A stretch of 45,688 nucleotides of DNA from Candidatus Culexmicrobium thermophilum (GTDB taxonomy: Archaea; Thermoproteota; Methanomethylicia; Culexarchaeales; B10-G16). The notes below the pieces were generated by a model, which saw only the letters and a program-made list of their open reading frames with translations, searched no databases and was not told the DNA's origin. Shown here in pieces: positions 1,223 to 40,270 of this stretch (position 1 is the first letter of the stretch; every line of letters begins with the position of its first letter). The position numbers were made by a program, and so were the translations under genes. The stretch spans positions 67,078-112,765 of the forward strand of contig JANZKB010000001.1 of assembly GCA_025061095.1 (NCBI GenBank). The letters run 5' to 3'.

Positions 1223-2680
1223 ATGTTAATAGCATCGGTGAGCAAAGCTGAATTGAATATGCCTGAAGAAGAATTAAATGTAAAGGAAATGGAAGTAATT
1301 AAAAACATATATGTAAATAATGGTAGAATTACGGTTAAAGCCCTCTCCCAGATGAGTAAAATCGATTTAAACACGCTTAACTCGATAATTGAAAAACTTC
1401 GGAAACTTGGCATAATTAATAAAAGGGAGATGACGATCAGAAAGGCAAAAATAAGCAGGAAAAGAGGTGGAAATGAATTAGCAGAGAGATTACTGTTCGA
1501 CATGTTGAGTAAGAGAAGAAGGAAGGAGATAACGATTAAAGGTTTAAAGAGAATTCTGGGAGAAGAACTTGCAACAATTGCTATTGGCAAGGGTATTGAT
1601 ATTGGTTTAATTAAGATAGAATCGAATAAAGTAAAGCTGATAAAAAGCAACTTTCCCTATACATTGGAAGAAAAAATTTTGGAGAGAATTGTTGAGGGAG
1701 AAGAGGTCATAGTGGAAAGGTTGAGTAAAAATGTTGAAGAAGCATTGAAAAAATTGGTGGACAGGGGACTTATAAAGTTGAGAGAGGAAAAAGTGAACAG
1801 TATTACTTTAACTGAGAAGGGATTAGAAATTGCGAAGAGGCTGAGAAGAATGGAGATTACTGGAGCTTTAGATGAGAATGATATTGTAGAGGAAAAATGG
1901 AGGAAAAAGAAACTTAAAAAATATGATTTCAAGACGCAGCCACTCCCTGTGAAATTCGGAGAAGAACATTTGGCGATACAATATTTAAGAAGGATAAAAA
2001 CGTTTTTAGAGCTTTATGGATTCGTCGAAGTTGAGAGCGGGGTGATAACAAGTGAGCTTTGGAGCTTCGACATGCTTAACTATAATCAGGAGCATCCTAG
2101 AAGAGCTATAAATAAATTATATTATGTAAAGAACGTCGAGTTGAAGGAGGAAATAAACTTTGAAAAGGTGAAGGAGTACCAGGAGAGTATTTGGGGATAT
2201 AAATGGAGCAGGGAGAGAGCGAAGAGAATTATACTGTCGATCAACCCAGCATCCTTTCTCATTAGAACTTCCAGTGAAAACACTAACTTAAAAAGAGTTT
2301 ATACAGTGTCTAGGGTTCTATTAGAGGGGAGAGGGGAGGATGGAAGACCATTAGAAAAAATATTAATTGGAGCATTAGACTATTCGCCTAATGTAAATCT
2401 CAGCAAACTTTTATATTTATGTAAACTGTTGCTTTCACATTTAGGATTTGAAGAATTTTCAGTATCTCCAATGTATTTACCATATGCTAGACCTGCATTT
2501 AAAGTTGAAGTTCAGGGAAACGGGATAATTGAAGGAGGCTTACTAAGGCAGGAAATATGTGAAGTATTAGAATTGGATGGTGGAATTGTTTTTAACATCG
2601 ACTTAGAGCATATAATCAAATGCAGAGTGAAGAATTTCAAATGTTTCTCAAAGAAGCTTGAAGCCTTAGGAAGAAGGTGA
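1223..2680 (+). CDS. pheS: Archaeal-type phenylalanyl-tRNA synthetase alpha-subunit paralog with degenerate catalytic motifs (probable pseudo-enzyme)
   Basis: N-terminal wHTH-like region, W..K.LKKYD, GF.E...I.SE.WSFDML...QEHP.R and WGYKWS.ERA match archaeal PheS. Motif 2 (RVFR) reads RVLL, FPFTEP reads LPYARP, and motif 3 (GxGxER) reads NIDLEH. Confidence 0.8.
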   Translation: MLIASVSKAELNMPEEELNVKEMEVIKNIYVNNGRITVKALSQMSKIDLNTLNSIIEKLRKLGIINKREMTIRKAKISRKRGGNELAERLLFDMLSKRRRKEITIKGLKRILGEELATIAIGKGIDIGLIKIESNKVKLIKSNFPYTLEEKILERIVEGEEVIVERLSKNVEEALKKLVDRGLIKLREEKVNSITLTEKGLEIAKRLRRMEITGALDENDIVEEKWRKKKLKKYDFKTQPLPVKFGEEHLAIQYLRRIKTFLELYGFVEVESGVITSELWSFDMLNYNQEHPRRAINKLYYVKNVELKEEINFEKVKEYQESIWGYKWSRERAKRIILSINPASFLIRTSSENTNLKRVYTVSRVLLEGRGEDGRPLEKILIGALDYSPNVNLSKLLYLCKLLLSHLGFEEFSVSPMYLPYARPAFKVEVQGNGIIEGGLLRQEICEVLELDGGIVFNIDLEHIIKCRVKNFKCFSKKLEALGRR

Positions 2681-4368
2681 AGGATGTGGTGAAGGTAAGA
2701 GTAAAACTGGAATATTTAAGTGAACTTATAGGAGAGAAGGTTAAAATCAATGAAGCTATAAAACTTCTAAGTTTAATTAGATGTAATGTAATCTCAAAGA
2801 AGAACAATAGACTTTTAGTTGAGGTTCCATATGAAAGAGCAGATTTATACTCAGCGGAGGGAGTTGCAAGAGCATTATTATTTTTGAGAGGAAGAGAGAT
2901 CGACCTTGGCGGAAGAGTGGAAAAAGGCAATTATATGATTTCCGCTAGAGAAGCAGGAAGAGCCGTACAGCCATATATAGGTGGAGCTGTAATAGAGGGG
3001 TGGAGAATCAGCGATGAAAGTAGAATACAGGTTGAACAGTTAATATCTAATCTACAAAAATATTATTGTGGAAAGAGGAGAAGAGCGTTCATAGAAATTC
3101 ATGACTTATCGAATATTCAGTTCCCACTTAGCTATACATTGATGAAAAAGAGGAATATAAAATTCAAACCGCGAAATAAGGGGGAAGAGATGAACGGTGA
3201 GGAGATGCTTAAGGAACTCAGAATGGAGCATTTCTTTGCAGGATTAGAGGAGTATCCGGTGATTATAGATGCTGGAGGCAAATTTATCTCCATGCCGCCT
3301 ATAACAGGTTCCGATGAAACGAAATTACCCTGTGAGAGTAGTGTTCGCCGCTTAAATTTAATGATTATTATGACTGCTGAAACCCGAAAACTTCTCGAAA
3401 GAATATTGAAAGTTGTCTGTGCAAATATGCTTCAAAATGCTGAAAAAGCATTTCAGATGGAAGTGGCCTACAGGGAAAATGTACATTTAACTCCAAATGT
3501 AAATTGCCGGTCGATCAATACAAGTTTCCATGAAATTTTAAAGATTATTGGAAGTAAGATTGATGAAATGATCGTTCTAAATGGTTTACGAAGAGCTGGA
3601 TTTAAAGTAAAAGAACGGGAAGGAGAAATTGAAATAGCTATTCCATTTTATAGAATTGATGCAAGAAATATCTATGATGTTATCGACGATGCTTTGTCGA
3701 TAATGGGATATGATATGTTAATACAAGATGGATTGGAGATTACAGTTTCGAAGATCGGTAGACCGCTAAATAAAGAAGTCATATTAGATAGATTAAGGGA
3801 TTTGATGGTTGGATTCGGTTTCAAAGAGGTTTTAACTAGTCTTTTTTTAAAGGAGAAGAATAGGTTGGGGGGAGAATTAATAGAAATCTCCAATCCATCA
3901 TTGTTAGAATATAGATTTTTACGTAACACTATAATTCCGAATTTATTAGAAGTTTTAAGAGAAAATAGGCATTTAAAGAAGCCTATAAAGATCTTTGAGA
4001 TCGGGGAAACCTATGAGGGAAATCTTCAAAGAGGATATGTTAAAAATTATACTTTAACCGGAGTTTTCATGTATCATAGAACCTGTTTTGAAAGGATACA
4101 TGGAATAGTGGATGTAATCCTTAAACTTTTAAATGTAAAATATAGGCTTAGCAGAATACGTAGCAATTATTTTATGGATGGGAGGGCAGCAGGCATCATC
4201 TATAGAAATAGACGGGTGGGAGTTTTAGGGGAGATAAATCCCGAGATTCTTGTGAAGAATAGATTGACAAGTCCAGTTACAGGGTTTGAAATCCATGTGA
4301 ATAAATTGATGGGGCCGCGGAGATTTGAACTCCGGTCACGGGGACCCATTGGGGGATTAAAGCTCTAA
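2677..4368 (+). CDS. pheT: Archaeal-type phenylalanyl-tRNA synthetase beta-subunit paralog (divergent editing domain)
   Basis: R.DLYSAEGVARAL, PYIGGAVI, SMPPI, YRID....D..DD..GY, SNP....Y..LR..IIPNLLE, KIFEIGE, F.DGRAA, G.LGEI.PE.L. Overlaps pheS by 4 nt (GTGA); the 3' end runs into an antisense tRNA. Confidence 0.88.
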   Translation: MKDVVKVRVKLEYLSELIGEKVKINEAIKLLSLIRCNVISKKNNRLLVEVPYERADLYSAEGVARALLFLRGREIDLGGRVEKGNYMISAREAGRAVQPYIGGAVIEGWRISDESRIQVEQLISNLQKYYCGKRRRAFIEIHDLSNIQFPLSYTLMKKRNIKFKPRNKGEEMNGEEMLKELRMEHFFAGLEEYPVIIDAGGKFISMPPITGSDETKLPCESSVRRLNLMIIMTAETRKLLERILKVVCANMLQNAEKAFQMEVAYRENVHLTPNVNCRSINTSFHEILKIIGSKIDEMIVLNGLRRAGFKVKEREGEIEIAIPFYRIDARNIYDVIDDALSIMGYDMLIQDGLEITVSKIGRPLNKEVILDRLRDLMVGFGFKEVLTSLFLKEKNRLGGELIEISNPSLLEYRFLRNTIIPNLLEVLRENRHLKKPIKIFEIGETYEGNLQRGYVKNYTLTGVFMYHRTCFERIHGIVDVILKLLNVKYRLSRIRSNYFMDGRAAGIIYRNRRVGVLGEINPEILVKNRLTSPVTGFEIHVNKLMGPRRFELRSRGPIGGLKL

Positions 4369-4400
4369 CCCCGCAGCCTTCCAAGCTAGCCTACGGCCCC
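4310..4400 (-). tRNA. tRNA-Pro(UGG) with an 18-nt intron at position 33/34
   Basis: Reverse complement: GGGGCCG acceptor stem, CGGGG/CCCCG anticodon stem, GTTCAAATC T-loop. Removing AGAGCTTTAATCCCCCAA gives the loop TT-TGG-GT. Confidence 0.9.
4349..4366 (-). other. tRNA intron with bulge-helix-bulge (BHB) motif
   Basis: Central helix GGGG(28-31)/CCCC, 3-nt bulges TT|A and AA|T, flanking C27-G35 and GA/TC pairs. Confidence 0.85.
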
Positions 4401-4511
4401 AAATCCGTTAGAAACTAATTAACCGAAATGCTTGAAAAATTTTTCCGCTTATACTGCTAAGATTTTTATGTCTCCAAATAGAAGAGAATTAATGGGGCAT
4501 TAAACTTCACG

Positions 4512-5270: not shown

Positions 5271-7487
5271 GTGTCTACGGATAGAAGAACAACCTCGGAA
5301 AAAATTCTAAATGCAATTTCAAACAGGATAAGAATTGAGATCATTAAAAAATTAAGTAGGGTTGGAGAGTATAGTTTCACCGAACTTATGACGGAGCTGA
5401 ACATGTCGCCGAGAACGGATGCAGGTAAATTTGGGTATCACATAAAGTTATTATCCAATAGCGGTATCATAGCAACAAATCCGAAAAATGGGCGATATAT
5501 ATTAACGGATCTAGGTAAAATGCTTGCAGATTTAATCTGGGAATTAGAGGAGATAACAAGAAAGAAGGAAAAGAAGATACTTGTAAGAACATCGGAGTTA
5601 ATAATGGAGCCTTTTGAACGAAGAAAGATCACGGAAGCTTTAATGCGTGAGGCTAGAGCTCCAAGAAAGATTGCGGAAATCATCGCCAAAGAGGCTGAGG
5701 AAAGAATCTTGCAGAGTAATATAAGTTATCTGACTGCACCTTTAATAAGGGAGTTCGTTAATGCAATATTGCTTGAGCAGGGATTAGAAGATTATAGACA
5801 TAGTTTAACTAGGCTTGGACTACCAGTTTATGATGTTGAAAGGATGCTTGAAATGAGCCGTCCAACTGCCTTGGTTCCGATAGAGATACATGCCAAGGCA
5901 GGTAATGCCGTGATGAGCGAGTATGCACTTATGAAAGAATTGCCCCGCAGAATATCGGAAGCACATATGTCCGGAAGTATACATATAAGTAATATAAGCT
6001 GTTGGGGATTGAAACCAGCTACAATACATCATGATGTTTCATTTTTTCTGAAGCATGGTCTCAAGTTAGGGGAACTTGGATATGTATTTTCAAATAGTAG
6101 AGGAGCAAGAAGCTTCAAGGAGGCTTTAGATATAATTTTGAGACTAGCCTATATTATGCATAGCAGCATCTCGGTTGGACAGGTGGTAGACGATATAAAT
6201 GTGGTTTTAGCTCCATTTATAAGGAACATGAAATATGATGAAATAAAGAGGGAGATAAAGGAACAGTTGATACGAATAAACCAGTTATTCTCCTATGAGG
6301 GAAAACTTTTACCTGTCGCTTTTGGAATGAGCATAAAGGATGAAAGCGAATATTTTGAAGAGGAATTAAGTCTTTTCAGAGCGTTCATGGAAGTTATGTG
6401 TGAAGGAGATCATTTGGGCAGACCTTTCCTGACGCCGCTTCCCATAATCAAATTGAAAGAAAAAGATCTCGATAAATATGAGGAGGAGGTTCAGCTGCTT
6501 TGCAAGTTGATATCCAAATGGTCGACACCATACATAATCAATTTGGATTGGCAAACCAATATGGCGGTAAGCTACTGTTGGGATCTTTCAAGGCTATCTA
6601 AAGGGGAGGGAGATGTTAATAGGTTGAAGCGAACCGGACAGTTAGACAGCGTTTTAATAAATCTTCCGAGAATAGCTTTAGAGGCAAATGGAAATGATGA
6701 AATTTTCTTTTCTAAATTGAATGATGCTATAAGCATAAGTATTGAAGCGTTAAGGGAGAAGATGAGGATTTTAAAGAAGAGGATGAACAATGGGCTTCTA
6801 GCTTTGCTCACAATGAAGGCTGGAGATGACCCCTACTATAATTTGGATGATGCTTATGGAAATATTGGGTATGTAGGTTTGTCTGAAGCAGTTAAGATTC
6901 ATACAGGGGAGGAAATGACGGAAGATGATGATGCTTTAAGATTTGCTGAAAAGATAGTTAATTATATGGTGAGAAAAACCTCTAAAAGAAGAATAAAAGT
7001 GAAGGTTAGCGGAATATCAGTGGAGGATCCTGGTAGAAGACTTTTGAAAACGGATATTGCCAGATTCGGCATTAGAAGTTTGCAGGAGGAGCTTGGCAGA
7101 AATCTGAATAAATACACTTCAGGAACCAATGTTCCCTACGAATTAAAGATACCGTTGAAAACAAGAATAAATATTGAGAGTAAATTTCAAAGAATGACTT
7201 TGGGTGGACATGGACTTAACATCTTCCTTAAAAATCCAATTCCCGAGCCAAATTACCTATTCAAAGTTTTATCGGAGCTTATTGAGAGTAAAAAGTTAGG
7301 GGCATTCACATTTTCAAAGGACTTCACATATTGTAGGAAATGTGGAAGCATGAGTGACGGATTATATGATAAATGTCCAAAATGTGGAAGATCAATTAAC
7401 AATATAGTTAACTACGTTAAGGAGGTGAACATTTATCAACCCGTCAACATTATTGAAGCAAGATACAGAAATAAATATATTATATGA
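5271..7487 (+). CDS. nrdD: ArsR-type wHTH + ATP-cone + class III ribonucleotide reductase (NrdD)-like fusion, apparently catalytically inactive
   Basis: N-terminal RIEIIKKL..YSFTELM..GKFGYHIKLL..Y.LTDLG; ATP cone VRTS..EPFERRKI..LTAPLIREFVNAILLE; TRLGLPVYDV, INLPRIA, GYVGLSE and CxxC..CPxC retained. No RxxGY glycyl-radical loop. Confidence 0.85.
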   Translation: MSTDRRTTSEKILNAISNRIRIEIIKKLSRVGEYSFTELMTELNMSPRTDAGKFGYHIKLLSNSGIIATNPKNGRYILTDLGKMLADLIWELEEITRKKEKKILVRTSELIMEPFERRKITEALMREARAPRKIAEIIAKEAEERILQSNISYLTAPLIREFVNAILLEQGLEDYRHSLTRLGLPVYDVERMLEMSRPTALVPIEIHAKAGNAVMSEYALMKELPRRISEAHMSGSIHISNISCWGLKPATIHHDVSFFLKHGLKLGELGYVFSNSRGARSFKEALDIILRLAYIMHSSISVGQVVDDINVVLAPFIRNMKYDEIKREIKEQLIRINQLFSYEGKLLPVAFGMSIKDESEYFEEELSLFRAFMEVMCEGDHLGRPFLTPLPIIKLKEKDLDKYEEEVQLLCKLISKWSTPYIINLDWQTNMAVSYCWDLSRLSKGEGDVNRLKRTGQLDSVLINLPRIALEANGNDEIFFSKLNDAISISIEALREKMRILKKRMNNGLLALLTMKAGDDPYYNLDDAYGNIGYVGLSEAVKIHTGEEMTEDDDALRFAEKIVNYMVRKTSKRRIKVKVSGISVEDPGRRLLKTDIARFGIRSLQEELGRNLNKYTSGTNVPYELKIPLKTRINIESKFQRMTLGGHGLNIFLKNPIPEPNYLFKVLSELIESKKLGAFTFSKDFTYCRKCGSMSDGLYDKCPKCGRSINNIVNYVKEVNIYQPVNIIEARYRNKYII

Positions 7488-12194: not shown

Positions 12195-12914
12195 TTAGAC
12201 TTCTCTCTTTCTTTTAACGTATCCTCTTATCTCCGTCTTCTCCACTTTGCCGTCTCTTACCCATATTATCCGATTACTTACTTCAACTATTTTATAGTCA
12301 TGGGTTGCACAGAAAATTGTGATACCTTGTTCTTCATTCATTTTTTTAAGGAGTGTAATTATTTCTAGACCTGTGTTTAGGTCGAGGTTTCCTGTCGGCT
12401 CGTCGGCGAGAATTATTGAGGGATTGTTGGCTAATGCTCTTGCTATAGCCACTCTCTGTTGTTGTCCTCCTGAAAGCTCTGAGGGTTTATGGTTTAATCT
12501 GTCGCCTAATCCAACCATTTCAAGCAGTTTTCTAGCTTTTTCCATGCGTATTTTTTTAGGAGTTCCTGCAAATATCATGGGTAATGTGACGTTTTCAATG
12601 GCAGTTAGAACGGGAATCAAGTTGAATGTTTGGAAGATATAGCCGATTTTTCTGCATCTCAGCCATGCAAGCTCATATGCATCTAACTTTGATATATCGA
12701 TGTTATCTATGAAGACTTTGCCTCTGGTAGGTTTATCCAAGCCGCCGATCATGTTGAATAGAGTGGTCTTGCCAGCACCTGACGGACCCATAATTGAAAG
12801 ATATTCGCCTCTGAAGATCTGTAAATTTATTCCGTCGAGAGCTTTGATCGTTGTACCTCCAAGTGTATAATATTTCGCTAAATCTATGGTTTCTACTGCA
12901 TAGTCGGATGACAT
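12195..12914 (-). CDS. ABC transporter ATP-binding protein, LolD/MacB/FtsE type
   Basis: GPSGAGKTT, LSGGQQQRVAIARAL, ILADEPTGNLD, ATHD. Start taken as the ATG at 12914 (MSSDY), just after the permease stop; the track's extension overlaps the permease. Confidence 0.92.
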   Translation of the reverse strand: MSSDYAVETIDLAKYYTLGGTTIKALDGINLQIFRGEYLSIMGPSGAGKTTLFNMIGGLDKPTRGKVFIDNIDISKLDAYELAWLRCRKIGYIFQTFNLIPVLTAIENVTLPMIFAGTPKKIRMEKARKLLEMVGLGDRLNHKPSELSGGQQQRVAIARALANNPSIILADEPTGNLDLNTGLEIITLLKKMNEEQGITIFCATHDYKIVEVSNRIIWVRDGKVEKTEIRGYVKRKREV

Positions 12915-12916
12915 GG

Positions 12917-13534
12917 TTACACCTCGAAACGTAATGCATCTACAGGGTTTATCTTTGAAGCATGATATGCAGGATATATGGTCGCAATTAGGCTGACTAA
13001 TAGAGCTACGGCAAAGGATAAACTCATAACATATAGGTAATTCTGTAGAGGGAGAAGTGTTCCTATTTGGAGAAGGATCATAGGCATAGTTGTGATGAAG
13101 GCTATTGAGAATCCTAGTAGTCCACCTATAAAGCCTATTACAAGTGCTTCGAATATGAATAATTGCAGTATTAGGGAATCTTTTGCACCGAGACATTTCA
13201 TAGTGCCTATCTCTTTATATCTCTCAGTTACAGAGATGAGCATAGAGTTAAAAATGGTTATTACACAGACGGTAAGGGATATTATGGTTACCCATATTTG
13301 ATAATCATTTAAATTTAACAGTTTGAAAACGTTGCCAGTAGTTTTTGGAGTGTAGGAGTAGCTGAGCATTATCATAGATGAAACTAAAGCCACTCCCAAA
13401 AAGACATTGCCAATGGTTAATAGGATTCTGGATCTTCTTTTCCTCATATTTTCGAGAACTATATGTAATAGATCTTTTAGTGAAAGTTTTGCGAAAGCGC
13501 TTTCCATTAAACCACCATCCATATACATATACAT
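12917..13534 (-). CDS. FtsX/MacB-type ABC permease with very short extracellular loop
   Basis: R..R.LLT.....GVAL, NSML.SV.ER..EIGTMK.LGA, YPA..ASK.NPVDALRFE. True start is probably 8 codons downstream (MESAF). Confidence 0.88.
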   Translation of the reverse strand: MYMYMDGGLMESAFAKLSLKDLLHIVLENMRKRRSRILLTIGNVFLGVALVSSMIMLSYSYTPKTTGNVFKLLNLNDYQIWVTIISLTVCVITIFNSMLISVTERYKEIGTMKCLGAKDSLILQLFIFEALVIGFIGGLLGFSIAFITTMPMILLQIGTLLPLQNYLYVMSLSFAVALLVSLIATIYPAYHASKINPVDALRFEV

Positions 13535-14048: not shown

Positions 14049-14781
14049 AAAATATCTAATTGAAAATATTGAGGAGAAAGGGGCAATACATATAACTTTA
14101 CTTGACCCCGACAAGGATCATTTGAACCTAGTTAATAGGGCTGTTGAAGCAGAGAAGGCGGGAACTTCAGCAATAATGGTTGGAGGATCTATAGGAGTTT
14201 CGGAGAGTATACTTGACGATGTGATAATTTCACTTAAAGAAAAAGTTGAAATTCCAATAATCTTATTTCCGGGAAATATTTCAGGTGTAAGTAGACATGC
14301 TGACGCCATATGGTTTATGTCTTTATTAAATTCGGCAACCACATATTATTTGGTAGATGCACAAGCGCAGGGATCATTAATAATCAAAAAATACGGTATT
14401 GAAGCTATTCCAATGGGTTATATTATAGTGGGGGAGGGAGAGGCGGCAGGGTTTATTGGGCAGGCAAGAATCATACCATATACACATCCAGAGCTGGCCG
14501 CAATATATGCTTTGGCAGGGGAACTGTTAGGTATGCGATTCATATATCTTGAGGCAGGTTCAGGGGCAAAGCAACCTGTACCTGAAAGTATGGTTAGAAC
14601 TGTTAGGAGAACCATCTCGACATATATGATAGTTGGAGGAGGAATTAAAACTGCTGAGCAAGCTAAAAGGATAGTTAGGTCGGGGGCAAACATAATAGTT
14701 ACAGGAACTGTTGTAGAGGAGAAGAATGTGGAAAGGAGAATCGGAGAGATTGTCAGGGCTGTTGAAGAGGGTGCTAATTGA
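13987..14781 (+). CDS. Geranylgeranylglyceryl phosphate (GGGP) synthase, group II
   Basis: LLDPDK, IMVGGS, ILFPG, ADAIWFMSLLNS, YLEAGSGA, IVGGGIKT, VTGT. Real start is probably the TTG at 14020. Confidence 0.93.
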   Translation: MRERLKQGVELLKTLRIGRVEKYLIENIEEKGAIHITLLDPDKDHLNLVNRAVEAEKAGTSAIMVGGSIGVSESILDDVIISLKEKVEIPIILFPGNISGVSRHADAIWFMSLLNSATTYYLVDAQAQGSLIIKKYGIEAIPMGYIIVGEGEAAGFIGQARIIPYTHPELAAIYALAGELLGMRFIYLEAGSGAKQPVPESMVRTVRRTISTYMIVGGGIKTAEQAKRIVRSGANIIVTGTVVEEKNVERRIGEIVRAVEEGAN

Positions 14782-15371
14782 ACAGTGCTTCCAAAATTAG
14801 ACGAGAACTTTTAAGGAAGACTTTACATATATTTGGTGTTTCAATTTATCTAACATATTTGAAATTTGGAGTTGAAGGTTCATTCTTGTATCTACTGGTC
14901 TGTTTCTCAATCTCACTGTTATTTGAGATTACTAGATTAAAGGCTTATAGATACTTCCCATTCAAATTTATAATTAGAAAGGTTGTAAGAGATGAGGAAC
15001 GTTGGAAATTTGGAGCACATATATACTTTTTCATCGGTTCCATTTTAGCATTTATAATATCTTTTTTCAATGAAAATGCGATAATTGGAATTATGTGTAT
15101 GGTGTTTTCGGATGCAGCTGGAGCTATCGTCGGTGTAACTGTTGGAAAACACAGGATTTCGAGGAGGGGAAGAAAAACTGTTGAGGGTGCTGTGGCTGGT
15201 GGAGCTGTAGCTTTTTTAACAGTATATATTATGATGAAAAACCTTGTAGCCAGCATAGTTTTAGCAACCGTTTATATTATAGTCGATTCTCTAAACATTA
15301 ATATTAATGATAATCTGCTACTTCCCGTCTGTTTCACTCTTGCATTAAACATTTTAGTTTTTTTGAGATAA
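14778..15371 (+). CDS. CTP-dependent polyprenol/dolichol (phytol) kinase family membrane protein
   Basis: E..RK.LH, DAAGAIVG..GKH, KTVEG...G, DNLLLP; multi-pass hydrophobic. Confidence 0.8.
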   Translation: MNSASKIRRELLRKTLHIFGVSIYLTYLKFGVEGSFLYLLVCFSISLLFEITRLKAYRYFPFKFIIRKVVRDEERWKFGAHIYFFIGSILAFIISFFNENAIIGIMCMVFSDAAGAIVGVTVGKHRISRRGRKTVEGAVAGGAVAFLTVYIMMKNLVASIVLATVYIIVDSLNININDNLLLPVCFTLALNILVFLR

Positions 15372-15389: not shown

Positions 15390-18300
15390 ATGGAGCTTAC
15401 TGGAGGGGAAATATCAGATTATTTTAAGCGGATAAAGAGAGAAGTTGAAAAAATATATGAAGTAGCGTGCCAAGCCAAACTGGGAGCATTCGATCCCAGT
15501 GACACTCCAGAAATTTTTCTTGCAAATGATTTAGCAGAAAGAGTGGAGGGGTTATTGAGGCAATATGGGATTTTTAAAATTGCTGATAGAATTCGAGAAT
15601 TAAATGAAAAGAATAGTAGAGAAGTGGTTGCCCTAAAAATAGCTGAGGAGATTGTCTATGGAAGATATGGGAATTTTTCGGAGGAGAAGCGGGCGGAGAT
15701 AGCTATAAGGGCAGCATTAGCAATATTGACTGAAGGAATAACAGCAGCACCTTTACAGGGAATAGATAGAGTGAAGATTAAGAGAAATCCAGATGGAAGC
15801 AAATATTTGGCAGTTTATTATGCTGGGCCGATAAGATCTGCAGGGGGAACCGAACAGGCACTAACAGTTTTGGTTGGAGATTATGTTAGACAACTACTGC
15901 ACTTAGACAAGTATAAGCCGACAGAGGAGGAAGTTAAACGATATATTGAAGAGATAAGGCTATATGAGAGAAATGTAGGTAGATTTCAATACCACAATAC
16001 AGATAGGGAGATTGAAAGAGCAGTTAAGAGGATACCTATAGAAGTTACAGGTGTACCGACAACCCAGATCGAAGTGAGTATTCATAGGGATTTGCCGAGA
16101 ATAGAAACTAATAAGTTGAGGGGCGGTGCATGCAGGGTTATAAATGATGGAGTAATAGGTAAGGCAAAAAAATTGATGAAGATAGCTGAAGATGTAGGAA
16201 TCGACGGTTGGGATTGGTTGATGGAGCTTTCCAAGAGCAGTGTAAAGGAAGAGGAAAGTGTAAAAGTAAAGCCAAGCGAAAAGTATTTGGAAGATATTGT
16301 GGCTGGAAGACCCATTTTTGCACATCCATCTAGAACTGGCGGTTTCAGACTCAGATATGGTAGAAGTAGGAATACTGGTTTAGCGGCTATTGGACTTAAT
16401 CCCGCAACAATGCTGATTTTAGGAGAATTCCTCGCGATAGGAACTCAGGTTAGAACTGAAAGGCCAGGTAAGAGCAGCATTATTATGCCTGTAACTTCAA
16501 TAGAGGGGCCTATTGTGAAATTGGAGGATGAAAGTGTAATTCAGGTTAACTCGTTGATTGAGGCTCAGAAAATACTGGATAAAATTAAGGAGATATTGTT
16601 TTTAGGGGATATTCTCATTGCTTATGGAGAATTCTTAGAGAATAATCATCCCTTGCTGCCCTCAGGATATGTGGAGGAATGGTGGGTTCAGGAGGTTCTG
16701 AAAGCTTTAAAAGAAAAATATGAAGGGGATTTAAAGAAATTTGGTGAGAAGACTGGAATTTCAGAGTTCAGATTGAGGGAGTTTATCTTCAACTATGTTG
16801 AAAGTAAGCCTAAAGCTTCGGAAGCCATAAAGATTTCTGAAGAGTTAGAAGTTCCATTGCACCCTAGATATACTTATTATTGGAATGGTATAAGTGCAGG
16901 TGATATTAAAATTCTTGCTGACTGGATTAGGGAGCAGAATGGGATAGATGTAGATAATAATGGAACATTCGTTAAAAAACCATATGATCATAGGGTGAAG
17001 AGAATACTGGAGGATTTATGGATAACACATAAATTAGACAAGGATAGACTGTATCTCTGGATAGATAAGGAAGATCTGAAGATTTTGGAGCGCTGTATAG
17101 CTGGATTTAAGAGCAATCTAGATCTTCCTGAGAATGGTTTAGAAGCAATAAATAGCATTTCTAGAATTAAAATACGGAGTAAAGCACCCACCTTTATAGG
17201 TCTTAGAATGGGGAGGCCTGAAAAAGCTAAGGAGAGAAAGATGAAGCCGCCGGTGCATGTATTATTTCCTGTTGGAATCGAGGGGGGAAGCAGTAGAAAT
17301 GTAATTGAAGCTGCAACATATAAGACTATTAAAGTGGAGAATTCATTGAAAATATGCTTGAAATGTAAGGAGAGAACGTTTTATGAGAAATGTCCAAAAT
17401 GTGGAGAGAGAACTGTTCAACTTAGAAGGTGTCCAAAATGTGGCAGAATAACTTTAGATTTGAAATGTAAGTTTTGTAATGTTAATACGAAACTTGCATT
17501 CGAACAGAATATGAATATCTCTGAAGAGCTAAGGAGAGCATGCGTTAACCTGAATATAACTGCACCGCCAAAGATCGTTAAAGGGGTTAGAGGATTGACA
17601 AATCCGGAGAAGATTCCGGAACCTTTAGAGAAGGGAGTGTTAAGGGCAAGACATAATGTTTACGTCTACAAGGATGGAACCATTAGATTTGATATGACAA
17701 ATGCTCCATTGACTCACTTTACGCCTAGAGAGATCCATACAAGCATTAGAAAACTCATTGAACTTGGATATACCAAGGATATCTATGGAAAGCCTCTTGA
17801 AAATGAAGAGCAACTGATTGAATTGAAAGTTCAAGACATAGTGATACCCCTTGAGGCAGCAGACTATTTAATTAGGGTTGCAAAGTTTGTGGATGAACTT
17901 TTAGTTAGATATTATAAAGTTAAACCTTTCTATCAAGTTAATAGAAGGGAAGATTTAATCGGACATGTAGTGATCGGGATAGCGCCACATACATCGGCAG
18001 GAGTTATAGGGAGGATAATTGGCTTTACTAATGCAAAAGTCTGTTTTGCTCATCCTTATTGGCATGCTGCAAAGAGGAGAAACTGTGATGGAGATGAGGA
18101 TGCTATAATATTGGGGTTGGATGCCTTTCTGAACTTTTCTAAGAAATATCTTCCTGAGAGAAGGGGGGGATTGATGGATGCACCGTTAGTTGTAACGTTA
18201 ATGATAGACCCAAACGAAGTGGATGATGAAGTTTTCAACATGGAAACATGTAACAAATATCCATTAGAATTTTATGAAAAAACCTTGAAATATTGTGATC

Positions 18301-18848
18301 CTAAGAAGCTTAGCGACATCATTGAAAAAGTGGAGAATAGGCTTGGAAGAATGGAACAGTATAGAGGATTAATGTTTACACATTCAACGAAAGCCATAGA
18401 TCTGGGACCTAAAGTATCAATATATAAGAAGATGAGAACTATGGATGAGAAGGTACATGCACAGATGAGATTAGCAGACAAAATAAGGGCTGTAGACAAA
18501 AAGGATGTTGCGCAAAGATTATTGATACATCATTTCCTACCGGATTTAATAGGAAATTTAAGGGCATTCACCACGCAAAGTATGAGATGTACAAAATGTG
18601 GCAGAAAATATGATAGGCCGCCTTTATCGGGTAGATGTAGGGAGTGCGGTGGCAAATTAATTTTAACCGTACACAAGAAGAACATAGAGAAGTATATGAG
18701 ATTTGCAAAGACGCTAATTCAAAAATATAAGTTAGGGGTTTACTATAGGCAACGCTTAGATTTAATAGAGAAAGAATTAAATTTGCTATTTGAGAAGGAT
18801 GAGGAAGGTAAACAATCAAAAATAATCGATTTTTGGAAGAAGATGTGA
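15390..18848 (+). CDS. polC: DNA polymerase D large subunit (DP2), no intein
   Basis: YAGPIRSAGGT, GGFRLRYGRSRNTG, RMGRPEKAK.RKM.PP, KDGTIRFD, HAAKRRNCDGDED catalytic motif, C-terminal CxxC pairs. Confidence 0.98.
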   Translation: MELTGGEISDYFKRIKREVEKIYEVACQAKLGAFDPSDTPEIFLANDLAERVEGLLRQYGIFKIADRIRELNEKNSREVVALKIAEEIVYGRYGNFSEEKRAEIAIRAALAILTEGITAAPLQGIDRVKIKRNPDGSKYLAVYYAGPIRSAGGTEQALTVLVGDYVRQLLHLDKYKPTEEEVKRYIEEIRLYERNVGRFQYHNTDREIERAVKRIPIEVTGVPTTQIEVSIHRDLPRIETNKLRGGACRVINDGVIGKAKKLMKIAEDVGIDGWDWLMELSKSSVKEEESVKVKPSEKYLEDIVAGRPIFAHPSRTGGFRLRYGRSRNTGLAAIGLNPATMLILGEFLAIGTQVRTERPGKSSIIMPVTSIEGPIVKLEDESVIQVNSLIEAQKILDKIKEILFLGDILIAYGEFLENNHPLLPSGYVEEWWVQEVLKALKEKYEGDLKKFGEKTGISEFRLREFIFNYVESKPKASEAIKISEELEVPLHPRYTYYWNGISAGDIKILADWIREQNGIDVDNNGTFVKKPYDHRVKRILEDLWITHKLDKDRLYLWIDKEDLKILERCIAGFKSNLDLPENGLEAINSISRIKIRSKAPTFIGLRMGRPEKAKERKMKPPVHVLFPVGIEGGSSRNVIEAATYKTIKVENSLKICLKCKERTFYEKCPKCGERTVQLRRCPKCGRITLDLKCKFCNVNTKLAFEQNMNISEELRRACVNLNITAPPKIVKGVRGLTNPEKIPEPLEKGVLRARHNVYVYKDGTIRFDMTNAPLTHFTPREIHTSIRKLIELGYTKDIYGKPLENEEQLIELKVQDIVIPLEAADYLIRVAKFVDELLVRYYKVKPFYQVNRREDLIGHVVIGIAPHTSAGVIGRIIGFTNAKVCFAHPYWHAAKRRNCDGDEDAIILGLDAFLNFSKKYLPERRGGLMDAPLVVTLMIDPNEVDDEVFNMETCNKYPLEFYEKTLKYCDPKKLSDIIEKVENRLGRMEQYRGLMFTHSTKAIDLGPKVSIYKKMRTMDEKVHAQMRLADKIRAVDKKDVAQRLLIHHFLPDLIGNLRAFTTQSMRCTKCGRKYDRPPLSGRCRECGGKLILTVHKKNIEKYMRFAKTLIQKYKLGVYYRQRLDLIEKELNLLFEKDEEGKQSKIIDFWKKM

Positions 18849-25991: not shown

Positions 25992-26675
25992 ATGAGTCTT
26001 CGCACGAGGGAGGATGCATCTAGAGAACTACAAGAATTTAGGAGAGATGTGACGGAGTATTTTGACCTCATAATCAGAAGACTTGCAAGACTTCGATTAA
26101 TTGAAGAAAGGTTAGATGTTATTGAAGAATATATTACGGACCTTAGAAGTAGGTTAAGAAGATTGGAGACCACAATAAAAGAGTACATTGCAGAACAACC
26201 GCAGCCCAAAACTTCCATTACCTTAAGGGAGAGAAAAATTGAACGAAAACCTATAACGATACCGTCAATAAAACCCGCAATAGAGGTTGCATCCCAAAAA
26301 GCTGAAGAAGAATCTTCAAGGAAATTAGTACAGATACCTTTCACTAAAACCCAAAAAAGGTTAGAAGGAAAAACAGTGACTGAAAGGCTGGCCGTCACAT
26401 CACAGATCACAGATGATGATCTGGTTAGTAAACTGAATCGTCTGACAATAACGGAAAAGGAAATAATCAAAGTGTTAATTAAATATCCAGAATTAAGAGG
26501 AGGAACAGCAATTGCCAGGAGGATTGGTAAGGCTAGGGAACATACAAGCAGGCTTCTTAAAAAATTAGCTGATGAAGGAATTTTAATAAGAGATGAATCA
26601 GTTTGGCCTTATAAATATCAAGTTCCCGAAAAAGTAAAACAGATAATAATGCTAAGAGAACAATTAAGTACATGA
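25992..26675 (+). CDS. Uncharacterised N-terminal coiled-coil / C-terminal winged-helix DNA-binding protein
   Basis: Heptad pattern (LARLRLIEERLDVIEEYITDLRSRLRRLE), Pro-rich linker, LT.TEKEII..L..IARRIGKAREHTSRLLKKL..EGILIR..PYKY wHTH. Confidence 0.8.
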   Translation: MSLRTREDASRELQEFRRDVTEYFDLIIRRLARLRLIEERLDVIEEYITDLRSRLRRLETTIKEYIAEQPQPKTSITLRERKIERKPITIPSIKPAIEVASQKAEEESSRKLVQIPFTKTQKRLEGKTVTERLAVTSQITDDDLVSKLNRLTITEKEIIKVLIKYPELRGGTAIARRIGKAREHTSRLLKKLADEGILIRDESVWPYKYQVPEKVKQIIMLREQLST

Positions 26676-26694
26676 ATTTAATTATATGAAAATC

Positions 26695-27120
26695 TTAAAG
26701 TTCATTGGTGATTTTAGGGGAGATTGTGTACTGTCTTCTTGCACGTGTCCCTCTCCTCAATAAAATCCCACGATAGTAAAACCTTGAAAGATAGGTGGAT
26801 ATAACGTTTTCTGGGATAATTTCAGAGTATTCATCATAGAAAGCCGCTGCAACATCTTTACTCGTAAACCAACGATTATGAAAACGTTTGTTAAGCAGAA
26901 GAAGTATCCTTTCCTTTAACCCTTTAGTTTTGGTTTGTTTCGTGATGTTACTTGTGACATTGTGACTTAAAGAATACTCAGAGGAAGTTGAAGTCGCAAA
27001 GATCTCTAATAAATCTAGAAATTGCTTTATTTTATTATTGTTAAAAGTCCCTTCTAAAGTAATTGTTATCTTCTCGCCAAGGGGAGAGACGTACTCAACA
27101 CGCCACTTAGGCTTCTTCAT
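26695..27120 (-). CDS. Uncharacterised protein: small N-terminal beta/alpha domain, Ser/Thr linker, C-terminal winged helix
   Basis: WFTSKDV...F...Y.E.I....ISTYLSR....GIL.RRG....RQY. GGGGT SD precedes the ATG at 27120; the longer track ORF (to 27345) runs through non-coding A-rich DNA. Confidence 0.75.
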   Translation of the reverse strand: MKKPKWRVEYVSPLGEKITITLEGTFNNNKIKQFLDLLEIFATSTSSEYSLSHNVTSNITKQTKTKGLKERILLLLNKRFHNRWFTSKDVAAAFYDEYSEIIPENVISTYLSRFYYRGILLRRGTRARRQYTISPKITNEL

Positions 27121-27340
27121 TAAGATAACCCCAACCATTCCAGTTGTGTGAATTATATTATAACAGAAATATAATAGCTTTTCGGCCAAAAATATAAGTT
27201 GATAACAAAATAGAAAAAATAAAAAAGAAAAATTTTGGCCAAAAAGGGCAAAAAAAGGATTTATACAAACATTTCTTCCAAAAAATCTAAAAGAGAAGAA
27301 AAAATAAAGAATCAAGCGTAAATCAGGTTTTTCGGGAGGA

Positions 27341-27360
27341 TCCACTGGAAATAAAGGGGT
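27341..27360 (+). promoter_or_regulatory. Origin recognition box (ORB) 1
   Basis: TCCACTGGAAATAAAGGGGT matches the archaeal ORB consensus TCCAnTGGAAAnnAAGGGGT including the G-string. Confidence 0.8.
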
Positions 27361-27380
27361 AAACAGTTGTCAACTGTTTA
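27360..27380. repeat. Perfect 10-bp inverted repeat abutting ORB1
   Basis: TAAACAGTTG-T-CAACTGTTTA. Confidence 0.85.
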
Positions 27381-27886
27381 TTATGATAACATCTTGCAAG
27401 ATAAAAGGTTAAATAAAACCTCTACAAATATGGTAGAATAGAGTAGCAAGGCCAGCGGAATACCAATTTAACCAACAAAAAGACAAAAAACTCTTGTATA
27501 CTGAGAAGTAAACTATAAAAAACAAGAGAACAATATTCCAACTAAAAATACCTTGACTTTTTTAGATAAAATATTGGAAAGTCGATGATCTCAAACATCT
27601 TTAAAAAGAGCTGTATTGGCAAAATTGATGATCTCATGATAGAAAGATTTAAATATAAAAATTGAAGCATTCGTGAAGGTTACAATCATAGTACACCATA
27701 TATGATACTAATTAAACCAATAAAAAAGCATTTTTCGAGGTTTTTGAATCCTTATGGAACCATCAAACACGAGAAAAATAGCCGTTAGAAAAGTCTAAAA
27801 CAAGACGAAAAGCTTCGGATTCATAGTTCCGAACGGAACCATAAAGGCATAAAAACGCCGCATAACACTAGCAAAAACAACACACA

Positions 27887-27908
27887 ACCCCCTCATTTTC
27901 TATTGGAA
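27887..27908 (-). promoter_or_regulatory. ORB-like element 2 (inverted relative to ORB1)
   Basis: Reverse complement TTCCAATAGAAAATGAGGGGGT. Confidence 0.6.
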
Positions 27909-28037
27909 AATCAAAAAATAGATAACAATAAATATATAAAATATATTTCGATAAAAATAGATAAAATTATAAATAATATTAGATAAAAATACTTAAATAC
28001 TCAACCTCACACATACTAGTGGGGTATTTTCATATAA

Positions 28038-28403
28038 ATGAAATACAATAATGAAACCTTTAAGAGGGTATTTTCCACAGGAATTATAGGGGTCTGTGTG
28101 TCCTATATAGATGATGAGCGGGCTTTAGCGTTAGCTAGTTTTGTTCCGAAAAATGAGCGTCTAAAACTGCTTAAAATAGTATTTGAAGCTTGTGGTGAGA
28201 ATATTTCTAGAACTGCTAAAGAGATCAAAATTACTAGAGCACAACTTTATCGTTATCTAGGTAGAGCTGAAAGAGTTGATATTCCTTCAGATGAGATCTT
28301 AGCAAGAATTATAAAGGCGGCCTATAAGTTGAGACCTGTTAAAACTCGTGATTTCTTTAGATTTCTTCTAAGACAATTTAGAGTTCTCATAACTAGACTA
28401 TAA
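28038..28403 (+). CDS. Small helix-turn-helix protein
   Basis: R.KLL.I.....ENISRTAKEIKITRAQLYRYL....IPSDEILARII. Start is either ATG 28038 or GTG 28098. Confidence 0.75.
   Translation: MKYNNETFKRVFSTGIIGVCVSYIDDERALALASFVPKNERLKLLKIVFEACGENISRTAKEIKITRAQLYRYLGRAERVDIPSDEILARIIKAAYKLRPVKTRDFFRFLLRQFRVLITRL
28073..28093 (+). promoter_or_regulatory. ORB-like element 3 overlapping the 5' region of the HTH gene
   Basis: TTCCACAGGAATTATAGGGGT; the G-string may double as a Shine-Dalgarno sequence. Confidence 0.55.
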
Positions 28404-35096: not shown

Positions 35097-35444
35097 GGGG
35101 CATGTGGGCGTAGCTCACCTTCTGTTTCTGCGGGATTCAGCTAAGCGGCCTACCCGGCCTCATGCGGTCCTCATAGGCCATACTTGGCCTTACCCCCATA
35201 GGCTGGCCGTTGCATCCATTCTCCCAGCCTCGTCGACGGGTTATCTCGATGCCCATTGCTGGGCATCTTCTCGGCCTAGAAGCCTCAGCCGCCTCCTCCT
35301 CATCCAGCTGGGAGAGGTCTCGTTTCTATGCCAGAGCCAGGGCTCTCGCCCTGCCCCTCACGGGGCTATGGCTCCGCATGGGGGTGAGCTTCCTCAGGCA
35401 TCCCGTTTCCGAAGATGCCCGAAGCCCGCTCGCCCACTTGCCCC
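35097..35444 (-). ncRNA. rnpB: RNase P RNA (archaeal type A)
   Basis: P1 GGGGCA.GTGGGCG/CGCCCAC.TGCCCC; P4 GAGGAAGCTCACC with ACAGAAGGTGAGCTA; P6 CATGCGG/CCGCATG; P8 and P9 hairpins; AGAAACG and TGCAACGG conserved regions. Confidence 0.93.
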
Positions 35445-35466
35445 AAATAATCCTCCTAAAAGTTTC

Positions 35467-35482
35467 AATAAAAATTTTCTTA
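35467..35482 (-). promoter_or_regulatory. Putative BRE/TATA for rnpB
   Basis: AAGAAAA-TTTTTATT about 25 nt upstream of the RNase P RNA 5' end. Confidence 0.5.
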
Positions 35483-35486
35483 AACT

Positions 35487-35523
35487 GCCATGCACAGGCC
35501 ATGAATTTTCGCCTGGATGTGGT
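35487..35523 (-). other. 3' arm of the 23S rRNA processing stem with BHB
   Basis: Pairs with 38609-38645; central helix TCGC/GCGA, bulges TCA and AAA. Confidence 0.9.
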
Positions 35524-35526
35524 TGT

Positions 35527-38606
<3,080 letters not shown>

Positions 38607-38608
38607 TT

Positions 38609-38645
38609 ACCACACCCAGTGAGCGATTCACGGCCTGTGCATGGC
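38609..38645 (-). other. 5' arm of the 23S rRNA processing stem with BHB
   Basis: GCCATGCACAGGCCGTGAA-TCGC-TCA-CTGGGTGTGGT complementary to 35487-35523. Confidence 0.9.
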
Positions 38646-38712
38646 GATCATAAGAGTAAAACACTCTTCTCGCCCTTTATCTGGAGGCTAAGCCTCCAGA
38701 CTGCATCTCACG

Positions 38713-38754
38713 AAGCCTGAAGGAAGCCCAAATCCTTTCCGTGGCTCCCCGCAG
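38713..38754 (-). other. 3' arm of the 16S rRNA processing stem with BHB
   Basis: Pairs with 40295-40337; central helix CGTG/CACG, bulges AGT and GAA. Confidence 0.9.
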
Positions 38755-38768
38755 CAATTGATATTTTA

Positions 38769-40270
<1,502 letters not shown>

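Follow-up and report, generated by a model that had tools for sequence, protein, structure and literature searches.

The window analyzed here is a 45,688-nucleotide stretch of the archaeon Candidatus Culexmicrobium thermophilum, class Methanomethylicia (assembly GCA_025061095.1, contig JANZKB010000001.1, positions 67,078 to 112,765). Judged from its sequence, the intergenic region at 27.14-28.10 kb of the window is very probably a chromosomal replication origin of the Orc1 type. It contains three origin recognition boxes (ORBs) and is flanked by three genes for helix-turn-helix (HTH) proteins, termed ccHTH, p147, and sHTH. The best explanation as a whole, and a probable one, is that an Orc1/Cdc6 paralog, termed Orc1-A, would act on this origin in trans and that the HTH trio is an old origin-flanking gene set. 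The assembly is metagenome-derived, comprises 1.43 Mb in 130 contigs, and is 93% complete; the window has ~37% G+C. Genomes, contigs, loci, and families compared below carry handles beginning with G, C, L, and f.

Origin Recognition Boxes and Predicted Origin Core

The predicted origin core is composed of the following elements (window coordinates).

27341..27359, plus strand: ORB1, a match to the ORB pattern
27880..27911, minus strand: ORB2, core 27889-27907, extended by GTTGTGTGT; ORB pattern and inverted repeat
27912..28069, no strand: predicted AT-rich duplex-unwinding element (DUE), between the inverted ORB2 and ORB3
28070..28101, plus strand: ORB3, core 28074-28092, extended by TCTGTGTGT; 6 nt before the sHTH start codon

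The pattern TCCA-N3-GAA-N5-GGGG has three matches in the whole 1,425,202-base assembly (both strands), all within 27341-28092. It was derived from these same three sites and agrees with the published consensus, 'TCCA-GAAAC' plus a G-string, as given in the available part of the Ori-Finder 2 paper. The reversed pattern, used as a control, has no match in the assembly, and the chance expectation of the ORB pattern is ~0.2 per genome by a composition estimate. A sequence-only reading of the window had proposed three ORB-like elements forming a cluster of origin type. All three are confirmed, with two positions shifted slightly (27887 to 27889 and 28073 to 28074), and the cluster, holding 3/3 pattern matches, is the only one of its kind in the assembly.

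ORB2 and ORB3 form an inverted repeat with 32-nt arms (27880-27911 and 28070-28101) separated by 158 nt. The spacer between them is 80.4% A+T, a rank within the top 0.08% among all genomic windows of 158 nt; the spacer core (27912-28000) reaches 89.9% A+T. The arrangement ORB(-)/DUE/ORB(+) is described as the minimal functional archaeal origin (Introduction of PMC12141716; Ori-Finder-Arch preprint, available part), and ORB2, spacer, and ORB3 make up a predicted canonical core of this type. The stretch 27139-28097 is without an ORF of at least 50 aa, and an Rfam search of the origin region found no family.

Origin-type features present at the locus are the repeated ORBs with dyad and G-string, the inverted ORB pair around an AT-rich element, and a skew extreme. 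A directly adjoining initiator gene is absent; this feature is typical of origins and not obligatory. The gene for the PolD large subunit, DP2 (15390-18848), is located 9 kb from the origin. It is counted in favor of an origin because replication islands are described around other archaeal origins (PMC2643942, available part).

Strand Composition

Strand composition was followed with detrended cumulative skews in G013, a complete 1,521,743-bp genome of the class. The GC skew has its maximum at 796,942, and the AT and purine (RY) skews have theirs at 797,619. The ORB of this genome is at 796,959 and its sHTH gene at 797,214-797,501; all skew maxima are within 1 kb of the ORB locus. The minima lie at ~9.3-9.7 kb, roughly opposite on the circle. 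On the contig of the window itself, the cumulative GC skew has a local maximum at 96 kb; the ORBs of this contig occupy 94.4-95.2 kb.

Gene orientation does not explain the skew of G013, because the arc left of the locus has 161 minus-strand and 90 plus-strand mapped genes, coding strands are purine-rich, and yet the top strand of this arc is purine-rich. Orientation was taken from homology-mapped genes, since ORF-based calls cannot be trusted at 55% GC. G013, G002, and the window's own contig agree in the polarity of the AT skew. The available part of the Ori-Finder 2 paper reports a skew at the mapped Pyrococcus origin, without naming the extreme, that is matched by this AT polarity and by the amino-keto (MK) peak of G002.

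The Missing Initiator Gene

The window contains no detectable initiator gene, as had been claimed from the sequence alone. A Pfam search of 30 window ORFs found no Cdc6/Orc1 domain, and tblastn of eight Cdc6 proteins against the window gave nothing at E<=1e-3. The same holds for the class, where cdc6 is found in 0/20 loci of ~±8 kb around the origin.

The assembly has a single Cdc6, a divergent copy on contig C35 beside radA (G000:C35:1956-3017, where G000 is the present assembly; L001 1390-2538, minus strand). It scores 34 bits on Cdc6_C, versus 107-118 bits for the best copies in same-order relatives. Its identity to each of the two canonical G002 paralogs is 31-36%; it has <=189 bits to the two canonical Cdc6 groups and forms a third group. 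It is flanked by radA, a 96-aa winged-HTH ORF, and an ORF of 172 aa that belongs to no known family. Comparably weak third copies are present in G005, G007, G009, G020, and G030. Nearly all relatives carry two strong Cdc6 copies, and Cdc6 is present in 60/60 relatives searched.

The distance from sHTH to Cdc6_C is 47-274 kb in the 10 genomes that have both on one contig, a range that omits a 105-aa fragment in G008 and a weak match in G018. With orc1/cdc6 this far off in relatives, Orc1 must act in trans there. The proposal that Orc1 acts in trans thus gains a measured distance in relatives; for the present genome it is carried over from them. In G002, a single mini-ORB (TCCAATAGAAATATAGG, without G-string) is located 61 bp upstream of the relocated cdc6-A (G002:C1:224291, locus L183), and it may be an autoregulatory Orc1 site.

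The Three Flanking HTH Genes

Three genes of the window adjoin the origin.

25992..26675, plus strand: ccHTH, 227 aa, convergent with p147
26695..27138, minus strand: p147, 147 aa (or 141 aa from ATG 27120), divergent from ORB1
28098..28403, plus strand: sHTH, 101 aa from GTG 28098, start placed by comparison with relatives

The ccHTH protein is made up of an N-terminal coiled coil, a variable linker, and a C-terminal winged HTH. It has a weak HTH_Crp_2 match (E 2e-4) under the Pfam cut-off. A PDB profile search returned coiled-coil entries only, with an insignificant resemblance to ParB (E 0.11). Atlas clusters suggest a MarR/TrmB-like protein (0.91), which is a lead only.

In the structure model of p147, an N-terminal beta-beta-alpha unit is followed by a disordered linker and one C-terminal winged HTH. 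The predicted local distance difference test (pLDDT) is 78 overall and >90 over the winged helix. The protein had been read from sequence as a two-domain winged-HTH protein, and the model replaces one of these domains with the beta-beta-alpha unit. Profile matches are of generic PadR/MarR/Fur type only (best E 1.3e-3). The ORF at 26695-27345 is over-extended, its homologs beginning at positions that correspond to 27138 or 27120.

The sHTH model is a six-helix HTH protein with pLDDT 94.5. Its structural neighbors are generic XRE/Cro/controller proteins (Z<=7.0), and HTH_7 and HTH_8 matches are sub-threshold. GTG 28098 is the most likely start codon, in place of ATG 28038, since the reading frame of relatives extends no more than 1-12 codons ahead of the equivalent position. 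Given this start, ORB3 would lie over the promoter and 5' end of sHTH and outside its coding sequence. The overlap of ORB3 with the 5' end of the small HTH gene, as proposed earlier, is therefore kept in part: it would concern the promoter and 5' end, and not the coding sequence.

All three proteins stay below the Pfam and NCBIfam cut-offs, and profile searches of the PDB gave no significant relative for any of them. The structure comparison with WhiP/Cdt1, SegB, and AspA that the sequence-only reading called for gave generic HTH and winged-helix matches only; similarity specific to these proteins is missing from the fold and profile matches, and absence from such lists does not exclude kinship. 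Database homologs of the trio are unnamed or 'hypothetical', with an occasional automatic 'BlaI/MecI/CopY' label. Their source names include Methanosuratincola, Methanomethylicaceae, Methanomethylicus, Verstraetearchaeota, Nezhaarchaeota, and Bathyarchaeia.

Linkage within Methanomethylicia

Homologs of sHTH are present in 34/61 genomes searched, G000 included. An ORB is found within 1.5 kb of sHTH in 20/20 loci, counting the window's own. Of 20 larger loci (±8 kb), 19 contain a regular-expression ORB match, 18 contain ccHTH, and 15 contain p147. The locus without such a match, L049, has an ORB variant, and the loci without p147 are one truncated contig and those of family f4.

Positions are conserved together with presence. 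All 14 relatives examined have an ORB, or a variant of one, 150-260 bp upstream of p147, and ORB(-)/spacer/ORB(+) with a spacer of ~160 nt is also found in same-order relatives. In f3, the block of ORB pair, sHTH, and TatD has the reverse orientation with respect to p147-ORB1; sHTH remains directly beside the ORB pair, and p147 remains turned toward ORB1. Strict ORB matches are concentrated at the locus, with 3/5 in G002 (99% complete), 3/3 in G011, and 2/2 in G005, and none of these three genomes has a strict match beside any cdc6 gene.

Linkage beyond the Class

Strong relatives of sHTH are found by profile in two further families of the phylum, f42 and f11. The gene order of L081 is Cdc6, sHTH, ORB, ORB, p147, ccHTH, and that of L083 and L084 is DP2 ... 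Cdc6, sHTH, ORB, ccHTH. The Cdc6 proteins beside the origin in these three loci score 410-465 bits against G002 cdc6-A and the G013 cdc6 at 986 kb, and <=174 bits against other paralogs. By sequence, the origin-adjacent Cdc6 of the sister lineages is the apparent ortholog of the relocated Methanomethylicia Cdc6.

The p147 protein is a single-copy family present in 199/301 genomes of the phylum and was not found in f12, f19, f27, and f31. Family f10 (complete genomes of ~1.6 Mb) is suspected to consist of ammonia-oxidizing Nitrososphaeria. In 4/4 complete f10 genomes, ccHTH and p147 are on one side of an ORB-bearing intergenic region of ~400 bp and cdc6 is on the other. The ORB abuts the cdc6 start codon, as ORB3 abuts sHTH in the window, and no sHTH homolog was found in the four f10 loci. 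Linkage of the trio to ORBs holds at ~30-40% protein identity between classes. The test of linkage set by the sequence-only reading thus has a positive outcome, with the HTH trio staying with ORBs across the class and in other classes.

Weaker sHTH-like matches in f12, f27, f30, and f37 (E 1e-5 to 1e-8) were set aside as unrelated HTH paralogs, with an ORB-like site nearby in 0/10 loci. This count excludes one chance-like match inside L090, and the four families were counted neither as linked nor as unlinked. A weak sHTH match in G018 (E 5.9e-5), located just after a Cdc6 C-terminus, was disregarded; the profile search detected sHTH in 0/6 of family f7.

The trio is not a feature of initiator-less origins, because the sister lineages have the same genes plus an adjoining cdc6. 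It is an old origin-flanking gene set and not a replacement for Orc1. In Methanomethylicia, having cdc6 apart from the origin is a derived condition. The simplest history starts from one ancestral block of ccHTH, p147, ORBs, (sHTH), and cdc6, from which cdc6 was later relocated in Methanomethylicia.

Other Conserved DNA in the Probable Origin

Besides the ORBs, the origin contains several short elements.

27167..27185, minus strand: promoter-like block AAATATAATAGCTTTTCGG (plus-strand letters), upstream of p147; found by conservation
27261..27270, plus strand: 10-mer TTATACAAAC, exact copy of the quoted Sulfolobus origin 'ucm'; candidate ucm
27361..27379, no strand: perfect 9+1+9 palindrome AAACAGTTGTCAACTGTTT, 19 bp, abutting ORB1
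27578-27593 and 27621-27636, plus strand: two direct repeats with GATGATCTCA (repeat family D12)
27641..27700, plus strand: TATA-like block AAAGATTTAAATATA plus conserved downstream sequence in the ORB1-ORB2 spacer; from a four-way spacer alignment
27749-27766 and 27828-27845, plus strand: two direct repeats with GGAACCAT (repeat family D9)

The AAATATAATAGCTTTTCGG block is kept in L037, L032, L035, and L043 at equal distance from the p147 start and would be a TATA/BRE element. The candidate ucm, defined by the motif as quoted in the available part of the Ori-Finder-Arch preprint, is one of two TTATACAAAC matches in the whole assembly. It is located between p147 and ORB1, outside the unwinding element, and a related motif is at the same place in L037 and L035. 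The ORB1-side palindrome is unique in the assembly (<=2 mismatches allowed) and in the window. Palindromes of CTGTTGACA type follow ORB1 in same-order relatives, and the element would be a binding site of a dimeric HTH protein.

Both GATGATCTCA copies are conserved in L037 and L032, and in part in L035. A reading of these repeats as a C/D-box sRNA was rejected, as no D boxes were seen on inspection. The GGAACCAT repeats are partly conserved in L037, L035, and L032. The non-ORB repeats are plausible targets of the HTH proteins. A short transcript may arise from 27641-27870, running toward ORB2 and the unwinding element.

In the f10 origins L198-L201, the interval from p147 to the ORBs holds many copies of motifs that contain GTTAAC (TGTTAACA and its variants). 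They resemble the TGTTGACA-type palindrome beside ORB1 in the order to which the window's organism belongs. As a p147 site in f10, TGTTAACA was set aside as suggestive only; G099 has 45 copies genome-wide and two in the origin, and the reversed control is commoner.

Proposed Mechanism and Alternatives

In the proposed mechanism, Orc1-A would be the initiator, encoded beside the origin in sister classes and 47-190 kb away in Methanomethylicia. It would bind the ORBs in trans and load MCM on the ORB2-ORB3 spacer. The ccHTH/p147 pair keeps to the ORB1 side and sHTH to ORB3, positions retained through inversions and across classes. Expression of sHTH would be tied to Orc1 occupancy of ORB3, since ORB3 covers the promoter and 5' end of sHTH. 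A predicted complex of G002 Orc1-A with sHTH scored 0.00, which counts neither for nor against binding. The p147 and ccHTH proteins, and possibly sHTH, would bind the non-ORB repeats, namely the ORB1 palindrome, the GATGATCTCA pair, and the GGAACCAT pair. Such binding could modulate firing or origin handling, in the manner of accessory proteins at bacterial oriC and of UBP at Sulfolobus oriC1.

Several observations weigh against this account. The two canonical Orc1/Cdc6 paralogs were not found in this 93%-complete assembly; as 60/60 relatives searched have Cdc6, they are more likely in an assembly gap than lost. In the GC-rich genomes G013 and G016, strict ORB matches number 1 and 3, versus 5 and 4 for the reversed control, so in these two genomes it is position and synteny that carry the case. 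If the ORB locus is the origin, the GC skew of G013 has the reverse of the polarity that is conventional for bacteria and Pyrococcus, the top strand being G-rich and A-rich to the left of the locus. In the first 500 kb of its contig, G002 switches over a broad 261-395 kb zone (AT maximum 312.6 kb, MK maximum 382.6 kb, GC minimum 395 kb) around ORBs at 341.5-343.3 kb. Of 494 mapped G013 genes, only 56% are co-directional with forks from the ORB locus, and the rRNA operon of the window (minus strand) is transcribed toward the ORBs, which would put it head-on to an outgoing fork. The p147 gene is not always origin-linked and lies 504 kb from the cdc6/ORB pair in G083 (f18). The DNA targets named for the trio proteins are guesses.

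A role for the HTH trio at the origin is plausible, with odds between doubtful and even; it may concern the initiation control or chromosome segregation proposed in the sequence-only reading. A bolder form of this idea is that p147, ccHTH, and in some lineages sHTH are unrecognized origin-binding accessory factors, widespread across Thermoproteota, that would recognize the conserved oriC repeats other than the ORBs and control firing or origin positioning, and it is put forward tentatively. If true, Methanomethylicia would be a natural experiment in which the initiator gene moved by tens to hundreds of kb and the accessory factors stayed, and the cis-linkage of the trio to the origin would be under stronger constraint than that of the initiator itself. 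The somewhat unlikely counterpart is a true origin flanked by ordinary transcription factors, whose promoters would by chance fall within a large intergenic region that rearranges slowly. Their linkage to the ORBs would be due to autoregulation, conserved gene order, or a benefit of origin-proximal dosage, and not to any effect on replication or segregation. The generic folds of the trio, with no replication-specific domain, fit this well, as does the synteny that is also seen for the housekeeping genes HypF, DUF2070, CBS, TiaS, and DP2 around the locus. So do the distant p147 of G083, the lack of detected p147 in f4 and f11, which retain ORBs and sHTH, and the lack of detected sHTH in f7 and f10. 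Most archaeal gene order is lost at ~30-40% protein identity, however, and the linkage outlasts both this class-level divergence and local inversions. Each gene also retains its own side and its own ORB, and the conserved non-ORB repeats are of the kind bound by dimeric HTH proteins.

The remaining alternatives concern the origin itself. The ORB cluster could be a relic, a dormant origin, or just a set of Orc1 operators that regulate the flanking genes, with replication starting elsewhere, for example beside a cdc6 gene, or by recombination; this reading is improbable. Some archaea grow without origins and dormant origins exist (PMC11005403 and PMC4595724, available parts), and the missing initiator gene, head-on rRNA operon, and unexpected GC polarity of G013 could be read this way. 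Against this stand the global skew extremes of complete G013 at the locus and the full ORB(-)/DUE/ORB(+) core retained across the class; moreover, neither G002 cdc6 has an ORB cluster alongside, the single mini-ORB of cdc6-A being the only such element. Replacement of Orc1 by one HTH protein acting as a WhiP-like initiator is more improbable still. The example of Sulfolobus oriC3 makes a winged-helix initiator conceivable (PMC4010727, available part), and the present assembly has neither an adjoining orc1 nor any Cdc6 other than the divergent one. Canonical ORBs with G-strings are nevertheless the recognition site of Orc1, not the TACTAC inverted repeats of WhiP type; p147 has one winged helix in its model, the trio coexists with an adjoining cdc6 in sister lineages, and Cdc6 is kept by every relative searched. 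The least credible alternative, to which hardly any weight is given, is a replication terminus or other strand-switch landmark. A GC-skew maximum, as in G013 and on the window's own contig, reads as a terminus under the bacterial convention, but ORB(-)/DUE/ORB(+) is a hallmark of origins, sister lineages carry cdc6 in the same region, and the AT polarity and G002 MK peak agree with the Pyrococcus report, as far as its available part goes, in which the extreme is not named.

Neighboring Genes

The rRNA operon (35100-40270, minus strand) is located 7 kb from the origin and contains GC-rich 16S and 23S genes, with the RNase P RNA gene directly 3' of 23S. The anaerobic ribonucleotide reductase NrdD (5271-7487, plus strand) has an N-terminal winged HTH (HTH_5/DUF7347) and an ATP-cone. 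The PheRS alpha subunit (1223-2680, plus strand) also has N-terminal winged-HTH domains. ARAGORN reports a 94-nt 'tRNA-???' at 4308-4401 (minus strand) with a two-base anticodon; it overlaps the end of PheRS beta, has no Rfam match, and is probably either spurious or a tRNA with an intron. Between PcrB and PolD DP2 there is an ORF of 197 aa (14778-15371, plus strand) that belongs to no known family, and its pairing with PcrB is kept in f4 relatives L040-L042 and L045.

Comparison with Known Systems

Archaeal origin regulation is poorly known beyond Orc1, and UBP, described in 2025, is the first accessory origin protein in archaea (PMC12141716). Two or three small, single-copy, unannotated DNA-binding families beside oriC across classes are concrete candidates for origin-handling factors. 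The searchable literature, which leaves subscription papers outside, has no description of class-wide unlinking or of an HTH set beside oriC. By term search, the Culexarchaeia paper contains neither 'Cdc6' nor 'Orc1', and its one use of 'replication' refers to PolD. Some relatives (Methanosuratincola, Methanomethylicus, and Bathyarchaeia by source name) are presumably in culture.

Origins without an adjoining initiator gene are a recognized minority category, so the locus is not new in kind. Further examples are known from Aeropyrum and Pyrobaculum. The main oriC of Hyperthermus butylicus likewise has ORB(-)/DUE/ORB(+) and no adjoining initiator gene (Ori-Finder-Arch preprint, available part). 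The same preprint, as far as available, defines a 'Type III, structure-match' oriC as any intergenic region with at least three ORBs and ORB(-)/DUE/ORB(+); conserved flanking HTH genes are not mentioned in that part. What the window adds is a whole class whose replicator is not linked to the gene of its cognate initiator. The finding is relevant to the 'replicator-initiator pair' view (PMC4010727, available part) and to software that depends on an adjacent initiator gene when it predicts origins.

Sulfolobus oriC1 likewise has three ORBs, with ORB2 and ORB3 inverted around an AT-rich unwinding element (PMC12141716), and its ORBs likewise consist of a dyad and a G-string (Ori-Finder-Arch preprint, available part). 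The window's origin also has the exact quoted ucm 10-mer, which is located here between p147 and ORB1 and not within the unwinding element. In oriC1, cdc6-1 directly adjoins the origin (PMC4010727, available part), in contrast to the window. UBP, a beta-hairpin protein with the shape of a saddle, differs from the three HTH proteins.

At Sulfolobus oriC3, the small winged-helix gene whiP likewise adjoins the origin (PMC4010727, available part). The 12-bp TACTACTACTAC inverted repeats around the ucm of oriC3 (Ori-Finder-Arch preprint, available part) are absent from the window's origin; a search found 0 in 27139-28097 and three matches (2 mismatches) elsewhere in the window, versus 1.97 expected. 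WhiP has two winged helices and is Cdt1-related, as far as the available text describes it, versus one winged helix in the p147 model, and the two are set apart by description, not by sequence.

SegAB and ParABS have a ParA/SegA Walker ATPase gene paired with the DNA-binding gene. Pfam found no ParA/SegA/CbiA-type ATPase in 30 window ORFs; the sole P-loop match is an ABC transporter ATPase (12195-13196). Small DNA-binding proteins that act at origins or are encoded near them include bacterial SeqA at oriC, ParB-parS, and archaeal SegAB and AspA-ParBA. Fis and IHF at E. coli oriC are small, origin-acting DNA-binding proteins (PMC12141716), and a functional analogy of all these with the trio is proposed. 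Among the fold matches of the trio, none to any of these families stood out.

The f10 origins share with the window ccHTH, p147, ORBs, an inverted ORB, an AT-rich stretch, a GTGTGTG-type ORB tail, and an ORB abutting the next start codon. The difference is the gene that abuts the last ORB, which is cdc6 in f10 and sHTH in the window.

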